A stretch of 64,000 nt of DNA from Candidatus Cloacimonadales bacterium (GCA_963677495.2 CAXXOU010000004.1:1216001-1280000); one strand, 5' to 3'; shown: positions 7,481 through 64,000, counted from the first letter of the stretch. Numbers and translations: made by a program. The notes: generated by a model not told the origin, from the letters alone.

Positions 7481-7636
7481 TCCCACTCTTATCTCTGCAT
7501 TAATTCGTGAAATTAGATTGGTCTTGTCCTGACATACACTTGTTAATTACTTGGTAAATAGGCCAAGGGTTTGCCAAGTGTTTGCCAAGGATTGCCCAAG
7601 TGTCTACCATGAATTAATGCAGAGATAAGAGTGGGA
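7481..7636. repeat. Intergenic element: 29-bp inverted arms enclosing an 11-bp-phased CCAAG array
   Basis: Arms 7481-7509 and 7608-7636 match 28/29; CCAAG/CCATG at 7563, 7574, 7585, 7596, 7607. Confidence 0.85.
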
Positions 7637-7771
7637 AGTAAGGGGGCAATCAAAATATCTTACTAGAAATGATAGATTGAGTAAAGCACAGTATTAGGAT
7701 ATAGAGATTGATTTTGAGGGTAGTTTACAGGTAAATCTGCACTATGAAAGGTTAGTTTATACACTTCCCCC

Positions 7772-7987
7772 CTACTTTTTTTTCAATAGTTGTTTCCAAT
7801 GGAACTTATAAACTCTAAAATTCATGATAACATGTATTACTGCTGCACCTAACATAACCCAGCCTGCTATAACATGCCATTCCATTAGTGAATAAAGGTC
7901 GAACAACGTCGCAAGTAGCATAGAAACCGCATTAATAATAAATGAGAGCAAGAGTACAGTATTAACAATAACTTTGAATAGTTTCAT
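7772..7987 (-). CDS. Small membrane protein (DUF4405-like)
   Basis: Two hydrophobic segments with WH...IH..N pattern; AGGAGG RBS upstream. Confidence 0.6.
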   Translation of the reverse strand: MKLFKVIVNTVLLLSFIINAVSMLLATLFDLYSLMEWHVIAGWVMLGAAVIHVIMNFRVYKFHWKQLLKKK

Positions 7988-8104
7988 TTTTCCTCCTGAT
8001 ATATTGATAAACTGCTTATGCTAATTGTCAATATTATTTCTTCCCAAAAATGAGATTAACAAGAAAAAGCTTGTCATTATTTATATTTATGTAGATATAG
8101 AAAA

Positions 8105-9457
8105 ATGGAAAAAAAGAAGAGTATATTTTGCTGTAAGCAGTGCGGGTATGAGTCGGCAACATGGTTAGGAAAGTGTCCATCATGTGGAGAATGGAATAGT
8201 TTTACAACTGTAGACAGGATAGTTGGTAAGGGTGGTAAAACTAAACCTATAGTACAGACTACACAGAACCCACCAACCCGGTTGAAAAAAGTTTCAACTA
8301 CCAAAGGGAAACGCATTCGTTCTGGGAACAGTGAATTTGATGGTGTGCTAGGCGGTGGAATCGTTCCCGGAATGGTAACACTCCTAGGCGGAGAACCTGG
8401 AGTTGGTAAATCTACACTAATGATTCAGCTGGCAGAATGGATGTCACAACAGCAATTAAAGACTCTTTATATTTCAGGAGAAGAAAGTCCTTCACAGATA
8501 AAAGTAAGAACAGATAGATTGGAGCTTTCCGGTGAGAATATCACGCTATATTGTACTAATAATACTGAATCCATTATCGAAGAGATAAGCAATAATAAAC
8601 CGGACTTAGTTGTAATAGATTCGATTCAGTCAACCTATTCAGATAGAGTTGACAGCTTAGCAGGAAGTGTTTCTCAGTTACGTGAAAATGCTGCACGTTT
8701 TACAAGAGTAGCAAAAGAGCTTGATGTACCAATATTCATAATTGGGCATATAACAAAAGATGGAGCGGTTGCAGGTCCTAAGCTTATAGAACATGCAGTT
8801 GATACTGTTTTATACTTTGAAACTGACCCTCGTAACTTTTACAAAATACTTAGAACTACTAAGAACAGATTCGGTTCTACAAATGAGATCGGTATCTTCA
8901 AAATGGTCAACAAAGGTCTTGAATCTGTTGATAATCCTAACTTCGTATTCTTGAATGAAGATGAAAGGTCAGTTGGCACTTCAATCGGATGCATATTAGA
9001 AGGTAGTAGAGTATTTCTGGCTGAAGTGCAATCATTGATCAACAATTCCAGTTATGGTAATCCACAGCGTGTTGCCAATGGTTTTGATCATAAGAAACTT
9101 GCGCTTTATCTTGCTATTATTGAAAGGAACATGGGCATCTCTCTCAGGATGTCTGATGTGTTCATTAGCTTAATGGGTGGAATAAAAGTATCTGAACCGG
9201 GACTTGACCTTGCGATAATCGCATCTCTCCTATCAAGTTTTAAAGATGAACCAATACCGGGTAAGACAGTCTTTATCGGTGAGGTTAGTTTGGGTGGTTT
9301 AGTCCGCCCGGTTGGAATGATAGAGAAAAAGATAACTGAAGCTCAGAAGTTGGGCTTTGATAAGATATTTGTATCAAGTCGGTCAAAACTTTCTAAGAAG
9401 TATGACCAGGTAGTTAAAATAGAACATATAAATGGGATAATGAGAAACCTTTACTAA
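8105..9457 (+). CDS. radA: DNA repair protein RadA/Sms
   Basis: C4 zinc finger, GGEPGVGKST, KNRFG motif, Lon-like C-terminal domain. Confidence 0.97.
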   Translation: MEKKKSIFCCKQCGYESATWLGKCPSCGEWNSFTTVDRIVGKGGKTKPIVQTTQNPPTRLKKVSTTKGKRIRSGNSEFDGVLGGGIVPGMVTLLGGEPGVGKSTLMIQLAEWMSQQQLKTLYISGEESPSQIKVRTDRLELSGENITLYCTNNTESIIEEISNNKPDLVVIDSIQSTYSDRVDSLAGSVSQLRENAARFTRVAKELDVPIFIIGHITKDGAVAGPKLIEHAVDTVLYFETDPRNFYKILRTTKNRFGSTNEIGIFKMVNKGLESVDNPNFVFLNEDERSVGTSIGCILEGSRVFLAEVQSLINNSSYGNPQRVANGFDHKKLALYLAIIERNMGISLRMSDVFISLMGGIKVSEPGLDLAIIASLLSSFKDEPIPGKTVFIGEVSLGGLVRPVGMIEKKITEAQKLGFDKIFVSSRSKLSKKYDQVVKIEHINGIMRNLY

Positions 9458-10554
9458 TGAGAGAACAAGATTTAAAAACAGCTTTTAAAGAACTTAATGA
9501 GAAGTTCGTTCCAAAAACAATTGTAGCGGGATTTGACGGATTTATCGATGAGATTATCCATATTGTCGATACTTACACCGGAAAAGATACTTATAACAGA
9601 ATTGAGACAATTGCAGACTTTGCAGTAAAAGTAAGCCAAGCAGCCGGTTTAAGTGCTAACTTTGAATATAAAACAATCCAAAAGAAGCTTGGTGGTAATG
9701 GCCCAATCATAGCAAATGCTTTACTGTCACAAGGAAACAAGATTCACTATTATGGTGCATTAGGTCTAAAATCAATTGATCCAGTTTTCCAAAAGTTTGC
9801 TGATCATTGTGAGAGTGTTTCATCAATTGCTGACCCAGGATATACTGAAGCTCTAGAGTTTGCTGACGGAAAGCTCATGATGGGCAAAGTTGATTGTTTA
9901 AACCTTGTAAACTGGGATAATCTAGTTGAAGATATTACTTTAAATAGGATAACTGAAGTAATTAATAATTCAGAACTTATATGTTGCACTAATTGGACTA
10001 ATCTCTATAAAATGAATTCAATATTAGAGGGATTAGGAAACCTAGAATTAACTAAAAGAATCCCTTTATTTATTGATCTAGCAGACCCAAGAAAACGTTC
10101 AGTTGATGATATTAAAGGTGTTCTTAAGCTTATAAGTGAATTAGAATCTAAATATGAAGTAATCCTTGGTTTAAATGAGAAAGAATCAATCCTGATTTCA
10201 GAAGTATTGAGTGTTGAAACTGAAAACACTTTGAAAAGAAGTAAGAGAATTAGAGATGATCTGGAAATCACATGTTGCGTTATACATCCTGTAAAGTATG
10301 CAGTTGCATCAACAAAGCATGAATCGATACAAGTTGAGGGCCCATATTGTGCAAAGCCAAAGCTTTCAACCGGTGCCGGAGATAATTTCAATGCAGGTTT
10401 CAGTTGTGGGTTTATAAATGGACTTAGTCTCAAGTCATCACTTTACTTAGGCACGTGTACCTCAGGTTTTTACGTTAGAAATATGCATTCACCAAATATA
10501 GATGAATTAAGGAACTTTATAGAGCAATGGGCAAACAATAATGTAAGGGAGTAG
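9457..10554 (+). CDS. PfkB family carbohydrate kinase
   Basis: GGNG near the N-terminus and TGAGDNFNAG anion-hole motif. Confidence 0.8.
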   Translation: MREQDLKTAFKELNEKFVPKTIVAGFDGFIDEIIHIVDTYTGKDTYNRIETIADFAVKVSQAAGLSANFEYKTIQKKLGGNGPIIANALLSQGNKIHYYGALGLKSIDPVFQKFADHCESVSSIADPGYTEALEFADGKLMMGKVDCLNLVNWDNLVEDITLNRITEVINNSELICCTNWTNLYKMNSILEGLGNLELTKRIPLFIDLADPRKRSVDDIKGVLKLISELESKYEVILGLNEKESILISEVLSVETENTLKRSKRIRDDLEITCCVIHPVKYAVASTKHESIQVEGPYCAKPKLSTGAGDNFNAGFSCGFINGLSLKSSLYLGTCTSGFYVRNMHSPNIDELRNFIEQWANNNVRE

Positions 10555-10556
10555 AG

Positions 10557-12974: not shown

Positions 12975-12976
12975 TA

Positions 12977-13870: not shown

Positions 13871-13871
13871 T

Positions 13872-14954
13872 ATGATTTTACTATATTTAAGAACTTTACT
13901 TTACAAACTATTTTATAGATTTGGTTTTCCAAGATTACTTCCCATGAATTACACGATCAGCCTTCTTTACAGTTGTAATTCTAGATGCTCTACTTGTAAC
14001 ATATGGAAGAAGTCAGCAAACAACATGACAGCATCAGAGTATGGACGTTTATTCAAATCTGTTGGTAAATCACCATATTGGATTACATTCAGCGGTGGAG
14101 AACCATTCTTGCGTCGTGATATTGTTAAAGTAGTTACAACTATTTATCATGCCTCCAAACCTAAGATAATGAATTTTCCAAGCAATGGTATATTAACAAA
14201 AAAGATTGTTAATGACATCAAGAACATCTGTAGAGCCTGTCCAAAATCCCAGATTATAGTTAATTTATCAATTGATGGGATTGAGGAGGAGCATGATAGA
14301 ATTCGTAATGTTGAAGGTAATTATAAGAACGTAATCAAAACCTATAAACGACTAAAAGCACTCAATTACAAGAATCTTCAAATTGGTATACATACTGTCA
14401 TTTCCAGGTTCAATGTACATAACTTTGCTGCTATTGCCAGCCATATGATTGATCTTAAACCTGATTCATATATCACTGAGATTGCAGAAGAACGGCATGA
14501 ACTTGATACTATGAATAGTAATATCACTCCTACATTATTGCAATATAAATCTGCTATTGATTTCTTAATCCACAGAATCAAGAATGGAGAATACAAAGGC
14601 ATGAGTAAAATAACTCAAGCCTTTAGGATTGAATACTATACTTTAGTAAAAGAGATTCTCAGAGATAAAAAGCAAGTAATTCCATGTTATTCAGGTGTTA
14701 GTTCAGTTCAGATTTCTCCAGAAGGTGACGTTTGGTCTTGCTGTATCAAAGCTGAATCTATGGGTAACTTAAGAGAGAATGATTACAAGCTTAAACGCAT
14801 TTGGTTTAATCAGAATTTTAAAAAGGAAAGACAATCAATCAAAAATTTGGAATGCTGGTGCCCACTTGCAAATGCCTCATATACTAACATGCTTATGAAC
14901 TTCGATACACTTGTAAGGGTTTTTTATAGAGCATTTATTAAATGGTATAGTTAG
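13872..14954 (+). CDS. Radical SAM / SPASM-Twitch domain protein
   Basis: CNSRCSTC, SGGEP, C-terminal CYSG...WSCC...CWC. Confidence 0.88.
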   Translation: MILLYLRTLLYKLFYRFGFPRLLPMNYTISLLYSCNSRCSTCNIWKKSANNMTASEYGRLFKSVGKSPYWITFSGGEPFLRRDIVKVVTTIYHASKPKIMNFPSNGILTKKIVNDIKNICRACPKSQIIVNLSIDGIEEEHDRIRNVEGNYKNVIKTYKRLKALNYKNLQIGIHTVISRFNVHNFAAIASHMIDLKPDSYITEIAEERHELDTMNSNITPTLLQYKSAIDFLIHRIKNGEYKGMSKITQAFRIEYYTLVKEILRDKKQVIPCYSGVSSVQISPEGDVWSCCIKAESMGNLRENDYKLKRIWFNQNFKKERQSIKNLECWCPLANASYTNMLMNFDTLVRVFYRAFIKWYS

Positions 14955-14962
14955 GAGGCTGT

Positions 14963-16387
14963 TTGACACAAGTTGAATTCATAAAGTCTACCAACGATAG
15001 TAATTTAGGATTTACTGATTATTTTCCAAACTCAGAGAATAGTTTCTTCTTACTTACCTATAATCTTAAAGACTCACCGTTTTTAAAATCTGTCAATGCA
15101 TTCATACTCGAAGAGGTATTGAAACTAAAGCCAAATAGTATTCCGGAATTGGAAATAAAATCAACCTTTGTTGAATTCTTCAATGATTTAAACTGGAAAG
15201 TGAATGCTATGTTCAACAAAGCTGGTGAAGAGCATAAAGGGCTTTCGCTTTTCTTTGCTGTTAAGCGGTCTAACAGACTTTACTTCGTACAATTTGGTAG
15301 ATTAGCATGTGGTTTACTTCGAGGGGATGAATTTAAGGAGATTGGACTTAGTTGGTCGATTTATCCGATTGCAACTGTTGAATCTCTAAAACAACTTGGT
15401 TCACAACAGGATGATATTCCTGTTAATGTATATGAGATTTCAATTGTTACTTCGAGTACTTTCTTTACTTTCCCATCTAAACTAATTCCAATGATTCAGG
15501 AAAGTGTTAAAAATGGACCTAATGAGATTCTAACTACTCTCATTGCTGCTGAAGAAGACGTTAAACACTTTTTCTTCTTCTCAAAGTTACCCGAAAGATT
15601 CATTAAACCTTTAAAGTTCTTCCAAGGTCATTCTTTTAGAACTAGTGCAATTGCCTTTGGCATTATAATCCTGATAACGATACTGTATTATTTCTTCGGG
15701 GATAATATAGTTGAGCAGATAGGCTTCAAGACGGAAGAAACCTTAACTAGCCACAACATTCTTTTCGAGTTAAAGAACCTTACTGACTCAATCAACAATC
15801 CGGAGCTTGAAAAGCAACTTGCTAAATATGTTTATTCACCTGCAAAAGATGTAAGTCTTAAGCTAATCTGGCAAGGTCAATTTACGCATGATATAACTCA
15901 TTCTCCCCTATTTGATTTAAACAATATTTACCTGATTATAGGTAATAATATAGCCGCAGTCTCCAAACGTGATAAAGAAGTAGTGTGGCAGAAAAGCTTG
16001 AATTCAGTCATTAAGCATGCTGAATCTGTTGAGAATAACCTTCTTATTCACGGTTCAAACAAAGATGTTATGCTATTGAACTCTAAAGGTGAAATCATTT
16101 GGCAAAATTCACTTGGATCTCAACTCTCTGAACCAATTCAATATGGACACTCATCTGTCACCATAACTAGGAAAGAGGATAAAAGATTAAATAGCGGACT
16201 CATGGTTTCAAGTCAAAGTGACCGGATCAACATCTTCAGTTTAATCACAGGAGATATTATACATACAATAAGTTTTAACGATACTCAGGTTAAGTATATA
16301 AGTGATTATGATTCCATAAACAACTGTTTTTACGCAGTTGTCGGGCAAAACATGGTAATCCTTAAACTTCAGATAAAAGGTTGGTAA
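14963..16387 (+). CDS. Membrane-anchored protein with C-terminal PQQ-like beta-propeller
   Basis: Central TM helix; W-containing propeller-like blades (VVWQ, GEIIWQ); AGGAGG before TTG start. Confidence 0.5.
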   Translation: MTQVEFIKSTNDSNLGFTDYFPNSENSFFLLTYNLKDSPFLKSVNAFILEEVLKLKPNSIPELEIKSTFVEFFNDLNWKVNAMFNKAGEEHKGLSLFFAVKRSNRLYFVQFGRLACGLLRGDEFKEIGLSWSIYPIATVESLKQLGSQQDDIPVNVYEISIVTSSTFFTFPSKLIPMIQESVKNGPNEILTTLIAAEEDVKHFFFFSKLPERFIKPLKFFQGHSFRTSAIAFGIIILITILYYFFGDNIVEQIGFKTEETLTSHNILFELKNLTDSINNPELEKQLAKYVYSPAKDVSLKLIWQGQFTHDITHSPLFDLNNIYLIIGNNIAAVSKRDKEVVWQKSLNSVIKHAESVENNLLIHGSNKDVMLLNSKGEIIWQNSLGSQLSEPIQYGHSSVTITRKEDKRLNSGLMVSSQSDRINIFSLITGDIIHTISFNDTQVKYISDYDSINNCFYAVVGQNMVILKLQIKGW

Positions 16388-16388
16388 A

Positions 16389-17549
16389 ATGGCTGTTTTT
16401 AGAATGAAGAATACAATCCAAGACTATGACTGGGGTACTACATACTTCATTCCGGAACTTGTTAAATATGACAACCGGAATTCGAAACCTTGTGCAGAGC
16501 TCTGGATGGGTGCTCATCCAAAAGCACCTTCACAGATCTCAGTTAATGACAATGAACTAGCGTTAAACAGTTTTATTGATTCCTCTCCAGAACTGATATT
16601 AGGTTCGCATGCTGTTTCGGTTTATGATAAGAAATTACCATTCTTGTTTAAAGTCCTTAGTGCTTCAAAGGCCCTTTCTATTCAAGCTCATCCAAACAAG
16701 TTACAAGCAATGACTGGATTCAATAGAGAGAATGAGTTAGGTATAGAGCTAACTGACCGAAATAGGAATTATAAAGATAACAACCACAAACCTGAGTTAA
16801 TGCTCGCTCTTACTCCCTTCACTGCAATGTGTGGATTTAGGGCAATTGCTGAGATAGAGTTCTTGTTTGAGTTATTAGAGATCTCAGAATTATTCCCCGG
16901 TATCAAGAAAGGTTATAGAGAATTCTTCTCCGATTACCTCCGCTTAGATGATTCGTTTATAAATGAAATGCTACTAGATAGAATCAAAGCAAAGCTTTCA
17001 TCTAGTATTCAGGCTAATAAGATTCTAACATGGTGCCTTAAACTTCATGAACAATTTGGCAATCATATAGGTATCTTAGCTCCCTTGTTTTTGAATATCA
17101 TCAAGCTTAATCCCGGCGAAGCAATTTATCTGGAAGCAGGGATTCTTCATGCGTATCTGGAAGGGTCAGGTTTGGAGATTATGGCAAATTCAGATAATGT
17201 TCTTCGTGCAGGATTGACATCCAAGCATATCGATAAAGAGGAGATATTTAATGTTCTCAGGTTCGAGCACACTCCAATAGCTTTAGTCGATCCATGTTTA
17301 TCTGAGAATGGTGAGATAGTATATCAGACCGGTGCTAATGAGTTCGAGATATCCAAATTAGAGATAAATAATAAGACAGTTACTGCAAGTTGTTCCAGTG
17401 CTGAGATATTGTTATGTACTTCGGGCAAATGCAGTGTGAATGGGGTAGAACTAATCCAAGGTCAAACAGTTTTTGTAACTGCTGAAGAATCAGAAATCAA
17501 TATCACAGGGGAAGGTACTATTTTTAGAGCTAAGACTCCTTTAATCTAG
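16389..17549 (+). CDS. manA: Mannose-6-phosphate isomerase, class I
   Basis: YDWG, ELWMGAHP, LSIQAHP, NHKPE, HAY, MANSDNVLRAGLT. Confidence 0.95.
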   Translation: MAVFRMKNTIQDYDWGTTYFIPELVKYDNRNSKPCAELWMGAHPKAPSQISVNDNELALNSFIDSSPELILGSHAVSVYDKKLPFLFKVLSASKALSIQAHPNKLQAMTGFNRENELGIELTDRNRNYKDNNHKPELMLALTPFTAMCGFRAIAEIEFLFELLEISELFPGIKKGYREFFSDYLRLDDSFINEMLLDRIKAKLSSSIQANKILTWCLKLHEQFGNHIGILAPLFLNIIKLNPGEAIYLEAGILHAYLEGSGLEIMANSDNVLRAGLTSKHIDKEEIFNVLRFEHTPIALVDPCLSENGEIVYQTGANEFEISKLEINNKTVTASCSSAEILLCTSGKCSVNGVELIQGQTVFVTAEESEINITGEGTIFRAKTPLI

Positions 17550-18476
17550 CTAAAAGAACTTCCTCTTAATAAATATAAACACAACTATAAGCGATAGTCC
17601 AATTGAGATAAGAGTCAAAAACGTAAAGGCATGTGGTGATCCTGCTATCGGAAGCTTTATGTTCATGCCATAGAAACTGGCAATCAAAGTTGGAAGCATC
17701 AAAACTATTGTGATTGAAGTTAAGAACTTCATTACAACATTCAAGTTGTTAGATATCATCGAAGAGAACGCATTCATGGAATTACTCACAATCTTCGCAT
17801 ATATACTCGCCATCGCTATTGCCTGTTTATTTTCTACAATCACGTCATCAAGTAAATCATCAGCTTCTGAATCTTCAAGTAACCACCTTGATCTTGAAAA
17901 CTTCTCATGCATTATCTCATTTGAGCGTAATGATGTATTAAAATAAACAAGACATTTCTCAACAAACATGAGCTTAGTTAGATCTTCATTCTTCAGTGTT
18001 TGATGTAGTTTCCTCTCAAGCTCATTCATATCTTTATTTATCTCTTTCAGATAGTTCAAAAACTTTACTGAGTTTCTTAACATTATCTGGAGCACAAACT
18101 TCTGAGGGGTTATATCAAATGGCCTATGGGTTCCTTTAGTAAAACGCCCCAATATTGATGGTTCCTCTTTGCATATGGTCATAACTCTGTTGTGAGTTAT
18201 CACAATACCCATGGGAATTGTTTTAAATGGTGAGACATCATCATCTGTTCGAACCGGAATTCTAAGGATAATGAGAATGTTGCCATCTTCATATTCCACA
18301 CGAGAATTCTCATCTGCATCTAAAGGGTCGGTAATGAAGTCTAAAGGCACTTCATGCTCCTTCTCCATAAAGATAATCTCATAATTTGATGGATTCGTCA
18401 CATGTACCCAAAAGCAATCATCCAATTTATTCTGTTCAACTAAACTACGATCTTCTATCCCGAAATATCTGACCAT
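17550..18476 (-). CDS. corA: CorA family Mg2+ transporter
   Basis: YGMN signature between two C-terminal TMs. Confidence 0.9.
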   Translation of the reverse strand: MVRYFGIEDRSLVEQNKLDDCFWVHVTNPSNYEIIFMEKEHEVPLDFITDPLDADENSRVEYEDGNILIILRIPVRTDDDVSPFKTIPMGIVITHNRVMTICKEEPSILGRFTKGTHRPFDITPQKFVLQIMLRNSVKFLNYLKEINKDMNELERKLHQTLKNEDLTKLMFVEKCLVYFNTSLRSNEIMHEKFSRSRWLLEDSEADDLLDDVIVENKQAIAMASIYAKIVSNSMNAFSSMISNNLNVVMKFLTSITIVLMLPTLIASFYGMNIKLPIAGSPHAFTFLTLISIGLSLIVVFIFIKRKFF

Positions 18477-18633
18477 ATTAACTTCCCTGCACTGTTTTTT
18501 TGCAATTAAATAGCTTGAAACATTCTAGTCAATTATAAATAGCTCGAATAAAGTATCTTGTTTCTCTCTTTCATAAACTTCAAGTTAAATAAAATCAGAC
18601 AGAATCTACTGAAAACTTCTATAAATAATAAAT

Positions 18634-19785
18634 TTATCCTCCTGCTTTCTCAAACTTATGGCAACCGGTTTGCCTTAATTTATTAATGACAGGCTTTAAC
18701 TCATCTTCAAGTGCATTTCCTCTTTTACCCTGACAAAACGGACAGGCATGTATATCAGCTTTTGAGTCAACATAGAGATACCTGATACCACCTCCGAAGC
18801 ATCCGACATGCCTTTGGTGGTAACCTGTATATTCTAACATTGGCATCTCATCATGAGCAGGATTATTAACATAATCCAGATAGATCTCGTACAATGTAGC
18901 GATCTCTTCATCAGAAAGCTCGATATCCATTCCGGCATAATGTCCTGTCTTCCTTGGTTCCAAGATTCTCACGATAGAGACACCATGTTCCTTAGCTAAC
19001 TCCATATATCTTTCCAGGTTTGTTTTACTAACGAATTCCCGAACAGCGCATAAAGATAAAGCTACTACAAGTCCGGCTTCTCGAGCATTATCAATTGCTT
19101 TAAGAACCCAGTCATAAGCACTATCATGTTGTCTGAACTTGTTATGCTCATCTTTCTTCCAATGGTCAAGGCTTACTACAACGCCAGTTAAACCAGCCTT
19201 CTTAAGTCTATCAGCTTTCTCTTCATTGAGACCAAACCCGGAGGTAAGTATCCACATATCAGTTGTAGCCTTGGAGTTCTTTACCAGTTTAATCAGGTCA
19301 TCAAATCTTGCTAGTGGTTCTCCCCCACTCAGCTGGATATTAGTGATTCCATAATCTTCAAACTTACTCTGAATAGTTTGTATCTGTTCAAAGCTAAGTG
19401 TTTCTTCAGCTGACAGATTATTCCATTCATAGCAATGCTCACAATGCAACGGGCACCTACTGGTTATAGAAAATATTATTGTTTGCAGTTGATGAAAACC
19501 AGGTACAGAGATACGCTTCATTTCATTGGTAATAAAGAGATCGAATGCAGGTGAAGGCCATCCGGGAGCAGCAATGTTCCAATAATATTTATCATCCACC
19601 TTATACATCTTCGGCTTATCAGAATAACCCTGAATTCTTTTTCTTTTATCGACAAGCATCTTCAATGCTTTCATAGCTTTGATTGGATTACCGTACAGCT
19701 TCAAAGCTAATTTAAAAATATCTCTTCGAAGTCCTTTACGGACTCGCTTTAGCTCCTTACCAGTTACTTGATATGACTTACTCAT
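18634..19785 (-). CDS. Radical SAM protein with C-terminal Cys cluster
   Basis: CPLHCEHC, SGGEP, CFGG...CPFC...GC. Confidence 0.88.
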   Translation of the reverse strand: MSKSYQVTGKELKRVRKGLRRDIFKLALKLYGNPIKAMKALKMLVDKRKRIQGYSDKPKMYKVDDKYYWNIAAPGWPSPAFDLFITNEMKRISVPGFHQLQTIIFSITSRCPLHCEHCYEWNNLSAEETLSFEQIQTIQSKFEDYGITNIQLSGGEPLARFDDLIKLVKNSKATTDMWILTSGFGLNEEKADRLKKAGLTGVVVSLDHWKKDEHNKFRQHDSAYDWVLKAIDNAREAGLVVALSLCAVREFVSKTNLERYMELAKEHGVSIVRILEPRKTGHYAGMDIELSDEEIATLYEIYLDYVNNPAHDEMPMLEYTGYHQRHVGCFGGGIRYLYVDSKADIHACPFCQGKRGNALEDELKPVINKLRQTGCHKFEKAGG

Positions 19786-21352
19786 TATTAAAGCTTTCCC
19801 TCATCTCAAGCAAGTTCTCATATGAGAACCTACTTAGTCGACCCGGTTTCTTAAAACCGTTGAGCTTGGTTATTTTTGCTGGTCCATCAGGTTCTCTTAT
19901 AACTTCATAATGACCTTTACTGTGCATTATGATAGATCTAGCCAGACTTTCATCCTGTTCAGGAACAGGGAACTGCATTATTGCTCTGTTTCCAATCTCA
20001 GGCATCACAAAGTAATCGTTATCATCGTTTAAAAGCAAATCTCTAACATCATTATTATCATGATCAATAGCTGATTCTAATGAAACGATTTGAGGTTTTA
20101 CCTCTACGTTTTCAGTGTAATCAATTCCAACATAATCTGTTTCCCAGAACATAAAGCCGGATTCTAGTTTCACTTCAATTTCATCACCTTCTACTTTTGA
20201 GATATCTATTGGTAAAACCATCTCTTTGTCGGCCATCGGACCAACAACATGGTAATAGTCTGCAAACTCCCATTTACCATCTTGTTTCACATATATTGAT
20301 AAAGGTATATCCTGTTCAAGTGACCAATTAGGATTGTCAGATTTGCCGGACTCTTTCTGCTTATCGAACCATTTATGATATCTTTCACCAAACAAGCTAA
20401 AGAATCTACCCATTGTGTAATCAAGCCAGAATGAGTTTTTACCCTTATATACAAGCTTTGCAGTATTAGCATCTTGAGGTTTCTTAAAAGTAAGCACCAT
20501 ACTATCTTTAGCATTCTCTTCCATAACCTGATTCTCTTCACCACTGTAGTAGAGAGAATCTTTGTCTGTAATTATAGGTAGAATATCATTTCCCTGAGCT
20601 GTTAAAGCAGCTATAGGTTTCTGTAACTCTCCAAAGGTTTGATAATCACCATACTTATCAATTAATACACTTCGATTCTCAGGGTGGTCAACAACAACCA
20701 GTTCAGTAAGATTAGTTGATTGAATCTCTCGCATCTGATTATCCATCTTAAGCTGATATTTGCCATCAACAGGATGCAAATCAGGTAATGGCAGGTAATC
20801 ATGTCGCTCCAAATGCGGCAATATTGCACCGGAATAGATCTCACCAGTTAGCGTATATTTTTCACCGTCAAATGTGTAAACGAATGGACATGACTCTTTC
20901 GTCGCAAGGACAATTGCAATAATTATAACAGAAATAGCAGCTACGGATAACCCTGTTAACAGTACTGTTTTGATTAGTGTCAAAGCAGGATCAACTTCAT
21001 ATACCTGTATCTTTCGAATATCTTTGAGAGGAATCGATACCTTACCCATACTATCAGGTGGAGCAACATTTTCTTTCATATGAAAGTTAATCATGAATTT
21101 ATCTTTCTTGATTTTTGGCTTAATGTAATACTCCTTCATACTACCTGTAACAACTTTCTTCTTAAGTTTAGCCTTGGTAATATAGTATTTATTCTTCTCC
21201 TCCCCTTCATAGATAACGCGAATGTTCCTTTGATATAATCTGGGAATCTCATTCTTTTGAATTTTGTAAGGACTGTATACAACACATGAGCTGAACTGTA
21301 ATGCTATTAGAATGACAATAATAAGTTTGAAAACTCTCTTAGATAATCTCAT
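19778..21352 (-). CDS. Putative lipoprotein of unknown function
   Basis: Likely start ATG 21352 (MRLSKR); lipobox FSSC; internal TM followed by SCPFVYTFDG; overlaps the radical SAM start. Confidence 0.65.
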   Translation of the reverse strand: MRLSKRVFKLIIVILIALQFSSCVVYSPYKIQKNEIPRLYQRNIRVIYEGEEKNKYYITKAKLKKKVVTGSMKEYYIKPKIKKDKFMINFHMKENVAPPDSMGKVSIPLKDIRKIQVYEVDPALTLIKTVLLTGLSVAAISVIIIAIVLATKESCPFVYTFDGEKYTLTGEIYSGAILPHLERHDYLPLPDLHPVDGKYQLKMDNQMREIQSTNLTELVVVDHPENRSVLIDKYGDYQTFGELQKPIAALTAQGNDILPIITDKDSLYYSGEENQVMEENAKDSMVLTFKKPQDANTAKLVYKGKNSFWLDYTMGRFFSLFGERYHKWFDKQKESGKSDNPNWSLEQDIPLSIYVKQDGKWEFADYYHVVGPMADKEMVLPIDISKVEGDEIEVKLESGFMFWETDYVGIDYTENVEVKPQIVSLESAIDHDNNDVRDLLLNDDNDYFVMPEIGNRAIMQFPVPEQDESLARSIIMHSKGHYEVIREPDGPAKITKLNGFKKPGRLSRFSYENLLEMRESFNNE

Positions 21353-21490
21353 AATATCCCCCATTAATAAAAACTATTTCAAGTAGTAGATATTTCTACA
21401 CACAATAAAAAATATGTCAATATCTTTTAACTATTAGCTGACACTAGTTCAATTCTGAATGCGTTTATTGACAGGTATGGATTTATTGAC

Positions 21491-21598
21491 TGAAATCTTG
21501 GATCCTCTCCCGGGTTACCCTTACCTCACCCTTGGGTATCTCTTGCAAAGCCAAGAAAGTTGCAAGGGAGAACCATGGGAAAATCAGGCGAGATTTCA
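21491..21598. repeat. Intergenic 11-bp-phased dyad element (degenerate)
   Basis: CTTNN at 21520, 21531, 21542 faces CCAAG-like pentamers at 21551, 21562, 21573, 21584; short arms TGAAATCT/AGATTTCA. Confidence 0.6.
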
Positions 21599-21645
21599 AT
21601 ATTTGTCCCAGACTTTTATCAGACTAATTCTACTTCTGTCCATCA

Positions 21646-21790
21646 TTCTTCTCTCAGCAGTAATTAGTGATTTTAAACTGGTTTAAACTTGATGATATGT
21701 TGACCTATTCTTGGCAATTAAGCCAAGAATAGGCCAGGGATTTGCCAAGTGTTTACCAAGGGTTGACCAAGAATTACTGCTGGGAGTAGA
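21646..21790. repeat. Intergenic element homologous to 7481-7636
   Basis: Arms CTCTCAGCAGTAATT / AATTACTGCTGGGAG; CCAAG/CCAGG at 21723, 21734, 21745, 21756, 21767; inner 12-bp hairpin CCTATTCTTGGC/GCCAAGAATAGG. Confidence 0.85.
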
Positions 21791-21848
21791 GGGGACATAG
21801 CTACATTTGGACACTTTATGTATTGTCCTGAAATAGTTACCCTAAACT

Positions 21849-22283
21849 ATGAAAGGAAAAGAGATGAAAGAGAAAGAAGAAAAGAGAGTTTTGAGAAACT
21901 ATAGTGTAGTATTTAAGATGAAAGTAGTAGACGAAATCGAGAGTGGATATTTAACTATTAGTGAAGCAACTCAGCTTTATAAAATACCAAGTACGACAAC
22001 CATTCGAGGTTGGATCAAAAAATATGGAATGGATCAAAAGATTGATAAGGTGGTACACTATATGACTAAAGATGAAAAGACCGAATTAATCCGCTTACGC
22101 AAGGAGAATAGACGGCTTCAGCGTGCATTGGACGATAGCTATCTTAAAGAGTTAGCATTAGAGACATTGATAGAAGTATCCGGTAATAAGCTAGGTATGG
22201 ATCTAAAAAAAAAGCTTGGTTCGATAGTGCAGGAAAAACTCAAGAAAGAGCTATTGAATGCGGACTCCGATACAGAGGATTAG
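21849..22283 (+). CDS. IS3 transposase OrfA (HTH + leucine zipper)
   Basis: YSVVFKMKVV...TTIRGWIKKY HTH; LRKENRRLQ coiled coil. Confidence 0.9.
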   Translation: MKGKEMKEKEEKRVLRNYSVVFKMKVVDEIESGYLTISEATQLYKIPSTTTIRGWIKKYGMDQKIDKVVHYMTKDEKTELIRLRKENRRLQRALDDSYLKELALETLIEVSGNKLGMDLKKKLGSIVQEKLKKELLNADSDTED

Positions 22284-22297
22284 AGAGGATTTGTAAG

Positions 22298-23086
22298 GTG
22301 TACGGTTATACAAGACAAGGCTATAATAAGCATGTAAAAATACTCGAACGAGATGCTGCGAGAGACCGTGAGATAGTGCGACTCGTGGAAGAGCTCCGGC
22401 GAGAACAGGAGACAACAGGCTATCGAATGATAATGAAAATGCTTATAAAACATAATGATCCTGACCTAAAGATAAGTAGAGATAAACTAATAGAGTTGTT
22501 ACGTATGAATAACTTATTGCAAAGACCTCCCAAGCGATATGTAGTTACAACAAACTGGAAGCATAAATTGAAGATATACCCCAATCTTTTACCGGAAACG
22601 AACATCACAAAAAAAGACCAAGTTTGGGTAACAGACATTACATATATCTCAGTTGGAAGGGGGTTTATGTATCTGTTTTTAGTAACAGACTACTATTCAA
22701 GAAAGATAGTTGGTCACTACTTATCTGATACTCTGGAAACAAAAGGAGCAGTGAAGGCATTTAATAAAGCAAAAAGAGGAACAAAAATCCCGCGAGGTAT
22801 AATACTTCACTCTGATCATGGTGTCCAGTACTGTAGTAAAGAATACATCGGATTGCTTAAAAGAAGCCATGCAAGAGTTAGTATGACAGGAAAGAATCAC
22901 TGCTATGATAATGCAGTCGCTGAAAGAGTAAACAGAACATTGAAACATGATCTGGGAATGAAATTGAAATTCCCAAACAAAAAGGTCGCTTTGCAAGCAA
23001 CGGAAGAAGCAGTTTATATCTATAATAATAAAAGATATCATTCTTCACTTGACTACAACACTCCTGGAAGTGTATATGCTTCTTAG
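22298..23086 (+). CDS. IS3 transposase OrfB (DDE), probably fused to OrfA by a -1 frameshift
   Basis: WVTDITY, HSDHGVQY, DNAVAERVN, YNNKRYHSSL; the -1 frame is open from the A9G run at 22205-22214. Confidence 0.92.
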   Translation: MYGYTRQGYNKHVKILERDAARDREIVRLVEELRREQETTGYRMIMKMLIKHNDPDLKISRDKLIELLRMNNLLQRPPKRYVVTTNWKHKLKIYPNLLPETNITKKDQVWVTDITYISVGRGFMYLFLVTDYYSRKIVGHYLSDTLETKGAVKAFNKAKRGTKIPRGIILHSDHGVQYCSKEYIGLLKRSHARVSMTGKNHCYDNAVAERVNRTLKHDLGMKLKFPNKKVALQATEEAVYIYNNKRYHSSLDYNTPGSVYAS

Positions 23087-23220
23087 TAAATCAATTTAGA
23101 AAAGATAGAATTATTTCATTCAATTGAAGTAAACTGAGTAACTAAAACTATGGTAAACTTATTCAGGACACTGCATTATCTCACTTATCTCACTTCATCT
23201 CATTCTTTCTTCTCCTATAT

Positions 23221-23355
23221 TAAACTCTTTATCAAAACGTAACCTTCCCACTGTTTTCCCACTGTGCACGCACTGTGCACCCAGTGAAACAGTGGGTTGG
23301 CAGTGCCTTCACAGTGCGTGCACAGTGCAGACACAGTGCGTTGATAGATAGAGCA
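23221..23355. repeat. Intergenic 11-bp-phased CACTG/CAGTG dyad element
   Basis: CACTG at 23249, 23260, 23271; CAGTG at 23282 and 23290, 23301, 23312, 23323, 23334; perfect 18-bp inverted repeat 23260-23277/23310-23327. Confidence 0.88.
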
Positions 23356-23909
23356 GTGAAAGGGAGTAAAAAGGGCAGTAAATATAGCTAAGTTGTTGGT
23401 AATCGCACTGTGTATGTTAATTTCGGACTTGCGTTGCAGCGATAGCGTGACGCGAGAACGAATCAGAGGATTGCGACTTCGGAGTGCATTTTAGGAAGTC
23501 CGTTGCCTTATCAGGCCGACAAACTCCCTAAAATGCTGTAAGTCATTGCAAATCCCACTGTCTATGTAATTTTGAAGCTGTCGCAATAGCGACCGAAGGG
23601 AGATGGGCGAATAGCGAAAAATGGCAAAGGTATAACATTATGAATTCAACTCGTAAACTCGTGCTGGTGGCTACTCCCTATATGTCTCCCTGCCAGTCCA
23701 ACGAGCTCCTTGGATTACGATAAATATAGCAAACTAAAAGGACAATATTTCCATCAATCGTCCCAATTATCGATAACATTATAAAATATGATTGACAGAA
23801 ATCTAAGGGTATGAATTTTCTAGTGTATTGGAACGAGAATACCAAAATACAAAGTTTTAGCATGTCAGAAACGCTAAATATCATATGTTTACAATTAAAG
23901 GAGACATTT

Positions 23910-25169
23910 ATGGAATCCATCGACAACATATTTGAGTTAAATGGAACTCAGTTGAATAAACTTGCCCGTAAATACAAGATCACAGGCTACACAAACATGG
24001 AGAAGCAGGAGCTTATTTTCAAGATACTTGAGATGGTTGCTCTTCAAGAAGGTCTTGCCTTCGTTACAGGTTGCCTTGACGTTATGGATGACGGGTATGG
24101 TTTCTTAAGATTCGAACACAACAACTACCTCCCCGGGAAAGATGATGTATATGTATCACTTACCCAGATTAGAAGATTTAACCTCAAAAGCGGTCATTTA
24201 GTATCAGGTCCTGTACGTTCACCTAAAGATGGTGAAAAGTATTATGCACTTCTCAGAGTCACAGCTGTTAATGCTGCAGACCCACAAGAAGTAATCGAAG
24301 CAAAGAAGTTTGACCGACTTACTCCTTATTATCCAACTGAAAGACTCAACCTTGAGCACCATCAGAATGAGCACACTACAAGAATCATGAACCTCTTCAC
24401 CCCTATCGGTAAAGGTCAGCGTGGTATTATTGTTGCTCCACCAAGAACTGGTAAAACTGTGCTTCTTCAAAATGTTGCTAACGCTATCCTTACTAACCAT
24501 CCGGAAGTTGAGCTTATTGTGCTTCTCGTTGATGAGAGACCGGAAGAGGTTACTGAGATGAAACGTATCCTTAAACCGGGTAAAAGAGAAGTTCTCAGTT
24601 CTACATTTGATGAAACACCAAGAAACCACATAGCTGTTGCTGAGATGGTTATGAACAGAGCTAAACGTCTCGCTGAGATGGGGCGTGACGTAGTTATTGT
24701 GCTTGATAGTATTACTCGTCTTGCTCGTGCATATAACAACACTGTTCCTTCTTCAGGTAAGGTTCTTAGTGGTGGTATTGATGCTAATGGTCTTCATAAA
24801 CCTAAAAAGTTCTTCGGTGCTGCAAGAAACACAGAGGAATCAGGTAGTTTAACTATTATCGCAACTGCTCTTGTTGATACAGGTAGTAGAATGGACCAGG
24901 TTATCTTTGAAGAGTTCAAAGGAACTGGTAACATGGAGCTTGTACTTGATAGATCTATTAGTGATATGAGACTCTATCCAGCTATTGACGTTGTTAAGTC
25001 AGGTACAAGACGTGAAGAACTTCTCCAAACAGAACTTGAAAAACATAGAATGTATATATTACGTAAATACCTTAAGACTATGAGTCCAATACAGGGTATT
25101 GAAATGATGAAGAAGCGTATGAAAACAGCTGAGACTAACGAAGACTTATTGAAGAACATGAGTAGCTAA
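23910..25169 (+). CDS. rho: Transcription termination factor Rho
   Basis: [32 protein letters not shown]; start moved to ATG 23910 behind AAGGAG. Confidence 0.97.
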
Positions 25170-43121: not shown

Positions 43122-43391
43122 TTTATAAAGAGCTTATAATTAGAACTGATTGTTTCTACATTATTTTCCGATTACTATTATCACCTCGGGTAGTAAAAGG
43201 GAATTGTTAGTTAGTTGTAGTGATGTTTATAAGATTACAATTAAGAGAACTTATCAACAACAAATCGCAAGCTGGTTAATCTTTCAGTTCTATAAATATC
43301 ATATTTGTACCATCAAATAAAACTACATCTATTTTATCGTCCACTTCTTCTCTTTACTTTGTCGCATCAAGAACCTTTTGGCACCGTTGGG

Positions 43392-43472
43392 AAAGTTATG
43401 CACACGATGTGGATAACTTTAGGGGTTCATAGGGAGGGTCTAGGGAGGCTAAAGGGAGGGACAAGCGAGATT
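43392..43472. repeat. Inverted DnaA-box-like pair followed by an 11-bp-phased AGGGA array
   Basis: AAAG-TTATGCACA-CGA-TGTGGATAA-CTTT at 43392-43420; AGGGA/AGCGA at 43431, 43442, 43453, 43464. Confidence 0.7.
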
Positions 43473-43707
43473 CCAGGTTTTTGAAGTAGCACGTACCAGA
43501 CTCGTAGCAATAACATAAAGAATAACATAAAGAAAAAATGGAAAATTGGAACATATGGAATTAATTGAGATAAATCCAAGGAAATAGTAAGATGCTATAC
43601 TCATCAAGTACTGATGCTTCAATGTAAGACAGAGGTAATGGAACAATTCTCAAGTGTAATTATCATTGACACACATAAGAAAGATTAAAACATTGCAACA
43701 TTGAGGT

Positions 43708-43784
43708 GCCCCTGTAGCTCAGCTGGATAGAGCAGTTCCCTCCTAAGGAAAAGGTCACGTGTTCGAATCGCGTCAGGGGTGCCA
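43708..43784 (+). tRNA. tRNA-Arg (anticodon CCT)
   Basis: Cloverleaf: acceptor GCCCCTG/CAGGGGT, D-arm, loop CT-CCT-AA, T-arm ACGTG-TTCGAAT-CGCGT, encoded CCA. Confidence 0.96.
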
Positions 43785-53497: not shown

Positions 53498-53962
53498 ATT
53501 CCCATCCTCGCAAATTAGGTAAGGTTTCGTAGCATTTTCACACATTATATCTCATAAAATGATAATTACGTATACTCCTGTGTGTAATTTGTATCAAATA
53601 CAATAGATTTAGTCAATCTAATATTTCGATTATGTTTGAAAAGAAAATGAGATTTCTCAATTAAATTATGGTGCTTTCTCGACAGCCAAGCTCAGATTCG
53701 TAGTCTAATCATAACCTTGGAGTAAAGTATTGTAGTTAGACTTAATTTATCCTTCAAAGGTCATTATGAAGCACTACTAAACAGCACTGTAAAAGATTAT
53801 CTTCAGTTAATTTCGATAAAGTTGTTTATAATTCAACTGTTTCAAATATAAAGAATTTTTACGAATCATACTAGGCATTATAATCCTGTGCAAGATCTCA
53901 TTATCATCCCGGTTCCAGGTTCTATCCATGCCCCCGATTAAAAATATGCTTTAACGCTTGAA

Positions 53963-54048
53963 AAAGTTATCCACGCAATGTGGATAACTTTGGCCTTCGC
54001 CAAGGAGGGTCCTTGGTGGCTCCTTGGTGGTTCCTACTTGGTTCCATG
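53963..54048. repeat. Inverted DnaA-box-like pair followed by an 11-bp-phased CCTTG-type array
   Basis: AAAG-TTATCCACG-CAA-TGTGGATAA-CTTT at 53963-53991; CCAAG/CCTTG/CCTTG/CCTAC/CCATG at 54000, 54011, 54022, 54033, 54044. Confidence 0.72.
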
Positions 54049-54199
54049 TTTTTGATTGGGAGCAATAAGGGGTTAATAATGCTAAATGCTAAATGTAAAA
54101 GATAGGGTATAAAATATTAACTATTGACAGTATTAAATTAAATCCTTAATTATGAATTATATTCATGTAGTTATCTGTAAAGTAATTGTTGGATGGTAA

Positions 54200-59148: not shown

Positions 59149-59150
59149 AT

Positions 59151-60606: not shown

Positions 60607-60608
60607 TA

Positions 60609-60654
60609 TTCCTCCAATAAGTACAACTTATTCATACTTACTGGAGGAAGTCAA
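60609..60654 (-). promoter_or_regulatory. Putative AbiE promoter/operator inverted repeat
   Basis: 15-bp arms 60609-60623 and 60635-60649 match 14/15; they overlap the GGAGG RBS and abut a TTGACT -35-like hexamer. Confidence 0.65.
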
Positions 60655-60764
60655 GTATTTTGTATTATTAATGCTATAGATAATATTTGACAGTCTTAAT
60701 TGCTTTTTGAATCATGAGCAAGAAACGAATATAAGGAAAGCTTTATTACATAAAGAGTTACACT

Positions 60765-61355: not shown

Positions 61356-61413
61356 ACATTGACGATATAAAATTACTCCTTAAAGTTCGGCAACACTACT
61401 TTAAGGAGTATCT

Positions 61414-62574: not shown

Positions 62575-62590
62575 ATTTTAAAAGAAGATT

Positions 62591-62618
62591 GGGAGTTCCT
62601 ATTACGGAACTCCCTTTC
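62591..62618 (+). terminator. Terminator hairpin between convergent genes
   Basis: GGGAGTTCC-TATTAC-GGAACTCCC-TTT. Confidence 0.75.
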
Positions 62619-62622
62619 CAAT

Positions 62623-63501
62623 TTATATTGTATGTCTTAAGGGAACGCTGTTTAGCCTTTCAGCACTCATTCCGGCAATAGTATCATCTATTTTCTTTAT
62701 TATTTCTGTCTTATCGCGTGGTAAAACAGCATCAAATGAAAGTGAGTTGATGACATGGATTCCAAGATATGATACATTCTTTAAATCTATCAACTCAATC
62801 AACTTCTTCTGTTCTTCGAATACTTCCAACTCAGTAGCTAATTCGAACTTATCATTCGCTATATCCTTAGCTAATTGACTGCCTTCAGCAGGACTTAATG
62901 TTGTTGGTACAATGCCGACCGGATTAGTTGCATTGATTAGCTTAGCTGTTGCTATTGCATTATCGATACCCTTTCCCCTACCGGCTGCACCGAACATGAA
63001 TCCAAAGAGATAGTCAATCCCTGCCTTATTCAACCTTTTAAGCTGAACATAGGAATCTTGAAGACTGAAGCCCTTGTTGTGGTAGATCAATGCTTCTTCC
63101 AGTCCTGTCTCAGCACCAACCCATAATTCATTAATCTTTAGTTCTCTTAGCTCTTTCAACTCTTCATCTGTTTTCCCTTTTATATTGTTGATAGAAGCAT
63201 ACATTGTAATCACTTCTACTTCCGGGAAATACTTGATTACAAGCTCTGCAATAGGTTTCAATCTACTTGCAGCTAACACAAAAGCATCACCATTGACAAG
63301 AAAGACTCTTCGAACACTTCCATATAAGTTTCTAGCTTCAATGATATCTTTTTCGATTTGCTCTAATGATTCAGTTGCAAACTTCACGTCCCGATACATA
63401 TTGCAAAACGTACATTTGTTATGAGCACAACCAACAGTTACCTGAAGCAACAAAGTATTCGCTTCATATGGTGGTCTATATATTGGTCCTGTAAATTTCA
63501 T
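62623..63501 (-). CDS. Radical SAM protein
   Basis: YRPPYEA...GCAHNKCTFC. Confidence 0.88.
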   Translation of the reverse strand: MKFTGPIYRPPYEANTLLLQVTVGCAHNKCTFCNMYRDVKFATESLEQIEKDIIEARNLYGSVRRVFLVNGDAFVLAASRLKPIAELVIKYFPEVEVITMYASINNIKGKTDEELKELRELKINELWVGAETGLEEALIYHNKGFSLQDSYVQLKRLNKAGIDYLFGFMFGAAGRGKGIDNAIATAKLINATNPVGIVPTTLSPAEGSQLAKDIANDKFELATELEVFEEQKKLIELIDLKNVSYLGIHVINSLSFDAVLPRDKTEIIKKIDDTIAGMSAERLNSVPLRHTI

Positions 63502-63511
63502 AGCTTGTTTC

Positions 63512-63808
63512 CTAACCGATCTGTGTCATCTCACTGACGATAAATTCTTTAACTGCTCCTTCTGTAGCTTCCAGATATGCAGCAAGATGAGGGTTATTCA
63601 TATGCTTCTGCCAAAGCTCCCTATTCTCCCAATTCTCGAAGAACATGAAAGAATTTGGATTATCATTGTCCTGATGCAAATCATACTGCAGACAACCCTC
63701 TTCAGCTCTTGTTACATCAATAAGTTTTACTAATTCCTTCAACACTAAATTTCTTTTCTCTTCATGTGCCAATATTCTTGCAACAATCGTTAATTTTCCG
63801 TTTTCCAT
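63512..63808 (-). CDS. ABM-family putative quinol monooxygenase
   Basis: TRAEEGCLQYDLH, E.W, H...PH. Confidence 0.88.
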   Translation of the reverse strand: MENGKLTIVARILAHEEKRNLVLKELVKLIDVTRAEEGCLQYDLHQDNDNPNSFMFFENWENRELWQKHMNNPHLAAYLEATEGAVKEFIVSEMTQIG

Positions 63809-63935
63809 TTCATCTCCTATACTATTTCTTTTTACTATACTTTTTATATTTACTACATATTTTACTGATTAGACATATTGTCAAACAAATTTTTCATTTA
63901 TATCCCGTTCCTTTTGCGATAACGCAAACTTTTAG

Positions 63936-64000
63936 TAAACTCTTTAGCAAAACGCAGTCATCCCACTGTTTTCCCACTGTGCACGCACTGTGCTCCCAGT
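63936..64000. repeat. Second copy of the CACTG-phased element (truncated by the window end)
   Basis: 59/65 identity to 23221-23285. Confidence 0.9.

Follow-up and report, generated by a model that had tools for sequence, protein, structure and literature searches.

Small dispersed repeats shape bacterial chromosomes. To our knowledge, only the repetitive extragenic palindromic (REP) elements of proteobacteria and their REP-associated tyrosine transposases (RAYT) are understood mechanistically among such repeats. The repeats described here are found in a 64,000-nucleotide (nt) stretch of DNA from a Candidatus Cloacimonadales bacterium (GCA_963677495.2, CAXXOU010000004.1:1216001-1280000). The host phylum is uncultured and is common in anaerobic digesters. 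The whole stretch is called the window; its positions, 1-64,000, are counted from its first letter, and coordinates given without a contig refer to it. The repeats are intergenic elements in which a short word recurs every 11 bp. A described site with the same unit length is parC of plasmid R1, which spans about 159 bp and has its 11-bp units in two sets of five, each unit bound cooperatively by one ParR dimer (PMC2241845). The explanation favoured for the loci of the window, with about even confidence, is that they form a lineage-specific superfamily of non-coding dispersed repeats, most probably read on duplex DNA by a word-specific, cooperative protein.

The genome to which the window belongs (G000; 3.41 Mb, 4 contigs named C1 to C4, 37% G+C) was scanned for arrays. 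An array is defined as a locus with three or more occurrences, at one exact period, of a 5-mer that has at least 3 different letters. The genome-wide scan proposed in the earlier note places period 11 far above chance, with 292 exact arrays against 2-6 in three Markov shuffles of the genome. Period 22 gives 87 arrays, and the other periods from 6 to 21 give 1-57. The window alone holds 5 arrays at period 11 vs 0-2 at other periods. The words of the period-11 arrays include CACTG, CCACG, CCAAG, CGGGA, CGTTA, ACGGG, CCCTA and others. Grouping within 150 bp leaves 205 array loci. The superfamily comprises at least 4 families in the window and, in the genome, at least 8 word types and these approximately 205 loci. 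Of the latter, 31 lie inside crude open reading frame (ORF) calls; false frames across family B make up 14 of these ORFs.

All seven loci for which the earlier note claimed words every 11 bp are present. As it also stated, the word differs between subtypes and the period is constant: CTTGG/CCAAG at 7481 and 21646, CCCTTG/CAAGGG at 21491, CACTG/CAGTG at 23221 and 63936, AGGGAGG at 43392, and CCTTGGTGG-type words at 53963. None of the seven is unique. Each belongs to a dispersed family, built by two nhmmer rounds on the own genome with overlapping hits merged:

Family A: CTTGG/CCAAG dyad; 70 genome loci, 37 of them full length; window 7476-7641 and 21643-21796.
Family B: CACTG/CAGTG; 67 genome loci; window 23182-23398 and 63923-64000.
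Family C/D: inverted DnaA-box-like pair, then G-rich units; 72 genome loci; window 43345-43485 and 53938-54056.
Family E: CCCTTG/CAAGGG dyad; 11 genome loci; window 21493-21598.

The elements are 100-215 nt long. E elements adjoin A in 5 of the 11 loci, 43-45 nt to its left.

In family A, CCAAG recurs in a regular row along the right arm, of which the left arm is a degenerate mirror image. Besides CAGCAGTAATT, the outer inverted repeat has a left tract rich in pyrimidines and a right tract rich in purines; its sequence varies among copies yet is complementary within each copy. The pyrimidine-rich left and purine-rich right flanks seen in the earlier note are the two halves of outer inverted repeats. 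Among the 37 full-length copies of A, the complementarity of the arms is 0.57-0.97 at the words and 0.76-0.97 in the outer repeat at d=54-62; it is weaker beyond d=62, out to about d=75. Outside the words (d=5-9, 16-19, 27-31, 38-40, 50-51) and the outer repeat (d=54-67) there is no peak, and pairing at most linker positions is limited to 0.05-0.35 of copies. Mismatches of both the G.T and the A.C kinds are found, and no strand-specific wobble signal is seen in the arm pairs of the 37 copies. The elements of families A and E in the window are:

7476..7641, + strand: family A element; 5 degenerate CTTGG words in the left arm, 5 CCAAG words in the right arm, 11-bp spacing.
21493..21598, + strand: family E element; CCCTTG/CAAGGG dyad, 11-bp spacing, 45 nt left of an A element.
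21643..21796, + strand: family A element; CTTGG/CCAAG dyad with an IS3-family insertion in the purine-rich outer arm.

The ends of the first element are a perfect 26-nt outer inverted repeat, pyrimidine-rich on the left and purine-rich on the right, and its flanking genes, lolC/E-like and radA, are divergent. In its right arm, at 7582-7610, TTGCCA recurs every 11 bp and agrees with the -35 hexamer TTGACA in 5 of its 6 bases; one sigma-70-like match lies inside this arm.

In A and in B's distal units, the columns of the words show no or almost no variation, and those of the linkers are off consensus in up to 45% of copies. The linkers, called variable in the earlier note, do vary far more than the word but are not free, each position having a family-preferred sequence. 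The number of units changes in whole 11-bp steps (A, 2-6; C/D, 1-3; B, 4-5), and in some copies identical units stand next to each other in runs. The sister species (G001) retains the words CACTG/CAGTG and CGGGA, with different linkers. The outer repeat CTATCATAAT is common to families with different words, CGGGA and TAACG, the TAACG family being found in G001. Conserved words between variable linkers, together with arms that pair nowhere but at the words and the outer inverted repeats, favour a protein that reads the array on duplex DNA, as far as sequence comparison can indicate. The same features favour the cooperative binding platform suggested in the earlier note, for which no binding protein has come to light. 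A word-specific protein would bind the array cooperatively, each 11-bp unit taking up one protomer or one dimer. The role of the outer inverted repeats and end modules would lie in spread and recombination.

The distribution of arrays among relatives is patchy. The relation to the window's genome, the number of period-11 arrays and the numbers of Y1 transposase genes and of members of a 155-amino-acid (aa) protein family are given below. Array counts, that of G000 included, are from 400-kb samples, and 155-aa counts are from one query.

G000, own genome: 40 period-11 arrays; Y1, 14; 155-aa family, 24.
G001, same genus: 18 period-11 arrays; Y1, 13; 155-aa family, 12.
G013, another family: 24 period-11 arrays (TACGG, CTAGA, GTTTC, GCGGT); period 7, 38; Y1, 15; 155-aa family, 11.
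G014, another family: 9 period-11 arrays; period 9, 58; Y1, 3; 155-aa family, 8.
G006, another genus of the same family: 2 period-11 arrays; Y1, 13; 155-aa family, 2.
G027, another family: 2 period-11 arrays; Y1, 6; 155-aa family, 6 (weak).
G005, another genus of the same family: 0 period-11 arrays; Y1, 9; 155-aa family, 3.
G024, another family: 0 period-11 arrays; Y1, 2; 155-aa family, 0.

G004 and G009 have 4 and 7 Y1 hits, respectively; array sampling covered the other eight genomes. The dominance of other periods in relatives would fit unread minisatellites inside repeats resembling miniature inverted-repeat transposable elements (MITE), the 11-bp unit being a slippage accident in a few founder elements. 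BrickBuilt, a minisatellite within a MITE in related Bacteroidota, is a precedent (PMC4596501). The polymorphism in whole units, the identical neighbouring units of some copies and the word arrays found at any period in viral contigs agree with this. It nevertheless lies on the unlikely side: the 8 or more unrelated word types of one genome are all at exactly 11 bp; period 11 is found again, with other words, in G013, from another family of the same order; linkers diverge around unchanged words, which slippage of whole units would not predict; and the arms of the dyads carry one word in inverted orientation.

Folded as single-stranded DNA, the core of B forms a long hairpin (-36.5 kcal/mol, z -7.3 vs shuffles). 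The z values are -4.4 and -5.1 for two copies of A, -4.85 for D, -2.3 for C and -1.7 for E. Such folding, in B, A and D, would suit REPIN-like single-stranded DNA hairpins handled by the Y1 (RAYT-like) transposases of the genome, the words mattering only through arm pairing. The genome has 14 Y1_Tnp matches, 13 of them above the Pfam cut-off; they are diverged paralogs with at most 67% identity. Dispersed repeats, particular to each gene, are found at 27 of their 28 flanks, some in long tandem rows, which is the RAYT pattern. Contigs and positions of the genes are:

Y1 genes: C1:910648, C4:22109, C1:783126, C3:348091, C4:910234, C4:675782, C2:97516.
Y1 genes (continued): C2:154527, C4:1048444, C2:265272, C2:350304, C3:76613, C1:229000, C4:1452046.

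The lack of a target-site duplication signal in A, and the cassettes joined to the right end of B, which are the repeats flanking three Y1 genes, also speak for such hairpins. However, the repeats at the Y1 flanks are ordinary short G+C-rich hairpins or other units and not period-11 arrays, and a period-11 element is found within 500 nt of just 1 of the 14 genes. The linkers of A are non-complementary, as are those of B-like copies in G001. No bias according to GC skew is found, and Y1 counts across genomes do not track array counts (G006, 13 Y1 and 2 arrays; G014, 3 and 9). This explanation is considered unlikely, and adjacency of the Y1 genes to the arrays is rejected, their flanks carrying other repeats.

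The genomic context was taken from crude gene calls (ORFs of at least 80 aa; coding fraction 0.86-0.88). Of 62 intergenic cases of family A, 31 have divergent genes on either side, for an expected share of 0.26 from intergenic bases (p=5e-5), as have 24 of 57 of family B (expected 0.26, p=0.007); C/D is not enriched in divergent gaps (22/71). Elements are found in either orientation, mostly in promoter-bearing gaps. B is polar, with the left end of 45 of 57 elements pointing toward a gene start (p=1e-5), and the strict genome matches of a 16-nt palindrome of the TTTGCGATATCGCAAA type are all at a B left end (9/9). The elements and palindrome concerned in the window are:

23182..23398, + strand: family B element; CACTG words in the left arm, CAGTG words in the right arm.
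63913..63928, strand not assigned: 16-nt palindrome TTTGCGATAACGCAAA, left end of a B element.
63923..64000, + strand: family B element; CACTG/CAGTG, truncated by the window end.

In the first, a degenerate AGTAAAA-type extension, likewise phased at 11 bp, follows the right arm. The left end of the second B element faces the start of a minus-strand gene (63512-63808). To the left of several B copies (e.g. C4:567007, C4:1383836) lies a conserved segment with a frame of 20-26 codons starting MT(Q/K)EEVIH and a hairpin, GGAATTAGCGATTCC; this segment could be a leader peptide or another repeat module. Replication-strand bias, assessed by GC skew, is absent (A, 20/17; C/D, 17/25; B, 25/42), the split of B being explained by gene orientation. 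Sigma-70-type promoters beside elements are as numerous as in shuffles, with a consensus that may not be that of this phylum.

A structured RNA family, one of the natures proposed in the earlier note, would be encoded by the elements or would carry them as motifs. The hairpin potential of A, B and D exceeds that of shuffles; in C, pairing through G.U is possible between the pyrimidine tract on the left and the final AGGGAGG, and alifold favours the plus strand (-18.5 vs -7.9). Yet no element matches Rfam at gathering thresholds, the whole window yielding only a tRNA, and a search of 21400-23800 at E<=1 gives six weak hits resembling miRNA precursors on the B hairpin (20-29 bits vs thresholds of 50-91). 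G.T and A.C mismatches are both present in A, and the elements lie in either orientation, in gaps that mostly bear promoters; A and B are over-represented between divergent genes. An intrinsic-terminator scan detects no terminator-like sites above shuffles in or beside the elements. The proposal is not supported and is given a very low probability.

Family C/D differs from the others by an inverted pair of DnaA boxes. Its elements in the window are:

43345..43485, + strand: family C element; inverted DnaA-box pair, then three G-rich units (AGGGAGG x3).
53938..54056, + strand: family D element; inverted DnaA-box pair, then CCTTGGTGG-type units.

In both C and D the boxes are separated by a 3-bp gap, the right box is a perfect TGTGGATAA and the left box is mismatched. 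In the C element, TTATGCACA is at 43396-43404 and TGTGGATAA at 43408-43416; the G-rich units begin at 43430, 43441 and 43452, i.e. at +22, +33 and +44 from the perfect box, and a copy-specific outer stem closes the element. A tRNA gene is found at 43708-43781, about 220 nt to the right. In the D element, which sits between divergent sensor-kinase genes, TTATCCACG is at 53967-53975 and TGTGGATAA at 53979-53987; the units are at 54001, 54012 and 54023, a register identical to that of C. Three subfamilies with different words share the starts at +22, +33 and +44. Of the 154 perfect TTATCCACA boxes of the genome, 88 are inside C/D elements, so that more than half of the perfect DnaA boxes of the cell ride on a repeat; those outside number 66, close to the median count of 46 for 9-mers of the same composition. 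Binding of DnaA to the C/D boxes is likely, judging from their sequence. Of the 6 positions at which bases of the R box are contacted (as given in PMC6727663), the units retain 1, and for this reason a DnaA oligomer along them is, on the same ground of sequence, not likely.

For C/D alone, the boxes could be DnaA sites spread by a repeat for titration or recycling of the initiator, as by datA or a DnaA-reactivating sequence (DARS), the phased units guiding DnaA oligomers as in oriC. The share of perfect boxes in C/D agrees with this, as do the three perfect boxes beside the dnaA gene (C1:868310-869614; region C1:868190-869744) and the presence of the 25-nt inverted-box pattern in at least 114 genome records, which come from many phyla and mostly have one site each. 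In oriC low-affinity arrays, 9-mers with 2-bp spacing form a row nucleated by a consensus box, and the register of the C/D units equals this 9+2 spacing with its 11-bp period (PMC6070618, PMC6727663). The boxes of DARS cores are oppositely oriented, and box clusters outside the origin act on the initiator (PMC6868365). The gap between boxes is, however, 3 bp in C/D vs 5 bp in DARS (PMC6868365). The loss of contact positions in the units, the mismatched left box of both C and D and the lack of a DnaA box in families A, B and E also go against it. Compared with oriC, datA and DARS of Escherichia coli, C/D has units unlike DnaA boxes at the contacts and approximately 70 dispersed copies instead of one to three loci. 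An initiator-control role of this kind is quite improbable. A cluster of five perfect DnaA boxes is also found away from dnaA (C1:766199-766420).

Other elements treat the arrays as defined targets: an IS3-family element inserts in the outer arm of A, and a 30-nt junction lies at the right end of B. The features concerned in the window are:

21819..23175, + strand: IS3-family insertion sequence; 1357 bp, two overlapping transposase ORFs.
23389..23417, + strand: 30-nt junction sequence at the B right end, TAAGTTnTTG...CACTGTGTATGT.
23418..23538, + strand: REP-like hairpin cassette; its repeat family is that of the flanks of the Y1 transposase gene C2:350304.
23539..23567, + strand: second copy of the 30-nt junction, 150 nt past the first; a second cassette, of another type, comes next.

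The IS3-family element has 6 genome copies (1357 bp, 99.9-100% identical, ends TGTATTGTCC...GGACACTGCA). All 6 lie 4-38 nt past the AATTACTGC end of A, in the purine-rich outer arm and in one orientation; 4 of them have 3-bp direct repeats. In G001, the ends of a related insertion sequence abut B-like elements. Elements of the IS3 and IS110 families are known to target REP sequences (PMC1525189).

A loose pattern of the 30-nt sequence matches 124 times in the genome, and 58 of the 79 clusters of matches begin at a B right end. Among close spacings, 40 of 46 are of 130-159 nt, owing to the addition of a REP-like cassette and a second 30-nt copy. Cassettes are 120-130 nt long, and the 30-nt sequence recurs after each added one; the two copies flanking a cassette often share variants. 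The 30-nt element looks like a site-specific junction.

Several mobile or viral candidates were rejected. An IS21-family element (17 copies, 2360 bp, ends TGTCAATGGCAT, duplications of 6-9 bp; e.g. C4:1166047-1168407) is found almost only inside other repeats, including the B dyad centre and the C palindrome loop. As many repeat types are hit and just 4 of the 17 copies are in period-11 elements, it is not specific to the arrays. Ends of the Mu type were discarded: the presumed prophage left-end region has repeats of about 17-22 bp (TTCTCTGACATTTTGGC) and no period-11 words. A viral origin or autonomous master copy was dropped too, since four-fold CCAAG arrays are found in at least 117 viral contigs at period 11, in 95 at period 10 and in at least 122 at period 12 and are thus generic tandem repeats. 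The CACTG pattern gives 11 hits in viral contigs, mostly perfect tandem repeats. The exact C core has 0 hits in the genome collection, from which the window's own genome was excluded. For 14500-24400, no excised form was found in four contigs of one sample, which show repeat-collapsed depth and repeat-to-repeat joints only.

Several results weigh against a mobile superfamily read by a protein on duplex DNA. Neither a reader protein nor, in the paralog scan, a gene family adjoining the arrays was found, apart from the IS3 ORFs and an artefactual frame across B. Other periods are abundant in relatives (G014, period 9, loci L593-L612; G013, period 7, loci L073-L092), so that helical phasing is no general rule of the repeats of the clade. 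Tandem arrays of viral contigs are alike at periods 10, 11 and 12. The hairpin of the B core makes a hairpin role possible for this family. In A, the longest equidistant flanking direct repeat has a mean of 3.70 nt vs 3.60 in shuffled pairs; this gives no duplication signal, in a test made weak by the blurred ends of the elements. A search of this genome for an autonomous partner found no genes enclosed between inverted like arrays at distances of 0.4-12 kb, and the 3 inverted pairs at that distance are neighbouring whole elements. Three loci tried in the nearest genome, G001, yielded no orthologous empty site because synteny is broken there; flanking genes of G001 are about 73-81% identical to those of G000. 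In G002, another gene is at the site.

No target-site duplication, autonomous partner or filled/empty pair was found, and we infer from other features that the elements are or were mobile. The non-autonomous mobile element proposed in the earlier note is to this extent the description that suits them best: the elements are dispersed, intergenic, multi-copy and patchy, and have outer inverted repeats and 11-bp unit steps.

The 155-aa family, made up of paralogs, is a lead only as candidate reader, proposed from sequence counts. It has 24 genome sites (e.g. C4:992928-993386), none of them in the window. Its copy number and the period-11 counts have a rank correlation of about 0.9 over 8 related, non-independent genomes. 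Its genes are not beside arrays: 6 of 22 are within 1 kb, vs a background of 0.19. Two inspected members are neutral to acidic by residue count. The family has no Pfam match and 290 representatives in a library of 1.84 billion. Its predicted model (predicted local distance difference test, pLDDT, 93.4; predicted template-modelling score, pTM, 0.80) has no match in the Protein Data Bank by Foldseek at E<=0.001 (best 1.3). In a wide VIA-align search, the best match has Z 4.0 and a root-mean-square deviation of 2.4 over 49 residues, below the stated noise level. Many VIA-align rows are small DNA-binding domains of repressors or antitoxins, which we take to be ribbon-helix-helix (two titles agree); they are not counted as evidence.

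A broader proposal is that of a new repeat class, in which the helically phased protein platform would be the selected unit, each word family would have its own reader from a diverged small-protein family (candidate: the 155-aa family), and C/D would have captured a DnaA-box pair, so that its copy number would feed the control of replication initiation. This proposal is given a low probability. Protein matches of the window include a type IX secretion system sorting domain, LolC/E and TamB, and fit a diderm of the wider group to which Cloacimonadota belong.

The genome carries about 200 repeats built on a different principle, that of short words in a strict 11-bp register. If a reader were found, they would provide a second, independent model for the spread and use of non-coding repeats, and natural arrays with differing words and readers as separate DNA-binding parts; the C/D branch would test whether a repeat multiplying DnaA boxes alters replication control. 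The targeting by IS3 shows that, in this phylum too, mobile elements exploit such repeats as safe places to land. No published description of a period-11 repeat class was found in the Cloacimonadota literature searched; within it, the earlier note was right not to recognise a named element.

Among known systems, the elements are a variant of the REP, bacterial interspersed mosaic element (BIME) and MITE kind of repeat. Their mosaic-like ecology is that of REP/BIME and their build is different, consisting of polar or dyad arrays of 5-7-bp words at exactly 11 bp. They share with REP, BIME and REPIN a high-copy intergenic dispersal, mosaics with other modules, no obvious target-site duplication and the presence of many RAYT-like Y1 genes in the genome. 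Specific targeting by an IS3-family element is also shared with REP (cf. IS1397, ISKpn1, ISPsy8; PMC1525189). REP units are, however, G+C-rich hairpins of 20-40 nt, whereas these elements are word arrays of 100-200 nt with unpaired linkers. Unlike in REP/REPIN-RAYT systems, no Y1 gene is flanked by arrays, and promoter-bearing gaps are preferred, not gene 3' ends. Terminal inverted repeats, namely the outer repeat of A and the copy-specific outer stems of C, are shared with MITEs.

BrickBuilt of Porphyromonas gingivalis, from a related phylum group, is likewise intergenic and restricted to a species; it has small inverted repeats at its ends, a tandem array inside, and subunits that form a leader and a tail (PMC4596501). 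It repeats a whole 23-nt unit without spacers, whereas a word of 5-7 nt recurs here in an 11-bp frame with differing linkers (PMC4596501); the arrays are moreover often dyads, and many unrelated words have one period.

R1 parC resembles family A by its two sets of five 11-bp units; its DNA is curved and overlaps a promoter region (PMC2241845). It is a single plasmid site beside parR and parM, and its sets are direct repeats (PMC2241845). The arrays differ from it in being chromosomal, with 11-72 copies per family, inverted arms and no adjacent gene; the paralog scan gave nothing conserved beside them, no family search being aimed at parR/parM. By analogy, R1 parC/ParR is the best working model for how family A may be read.

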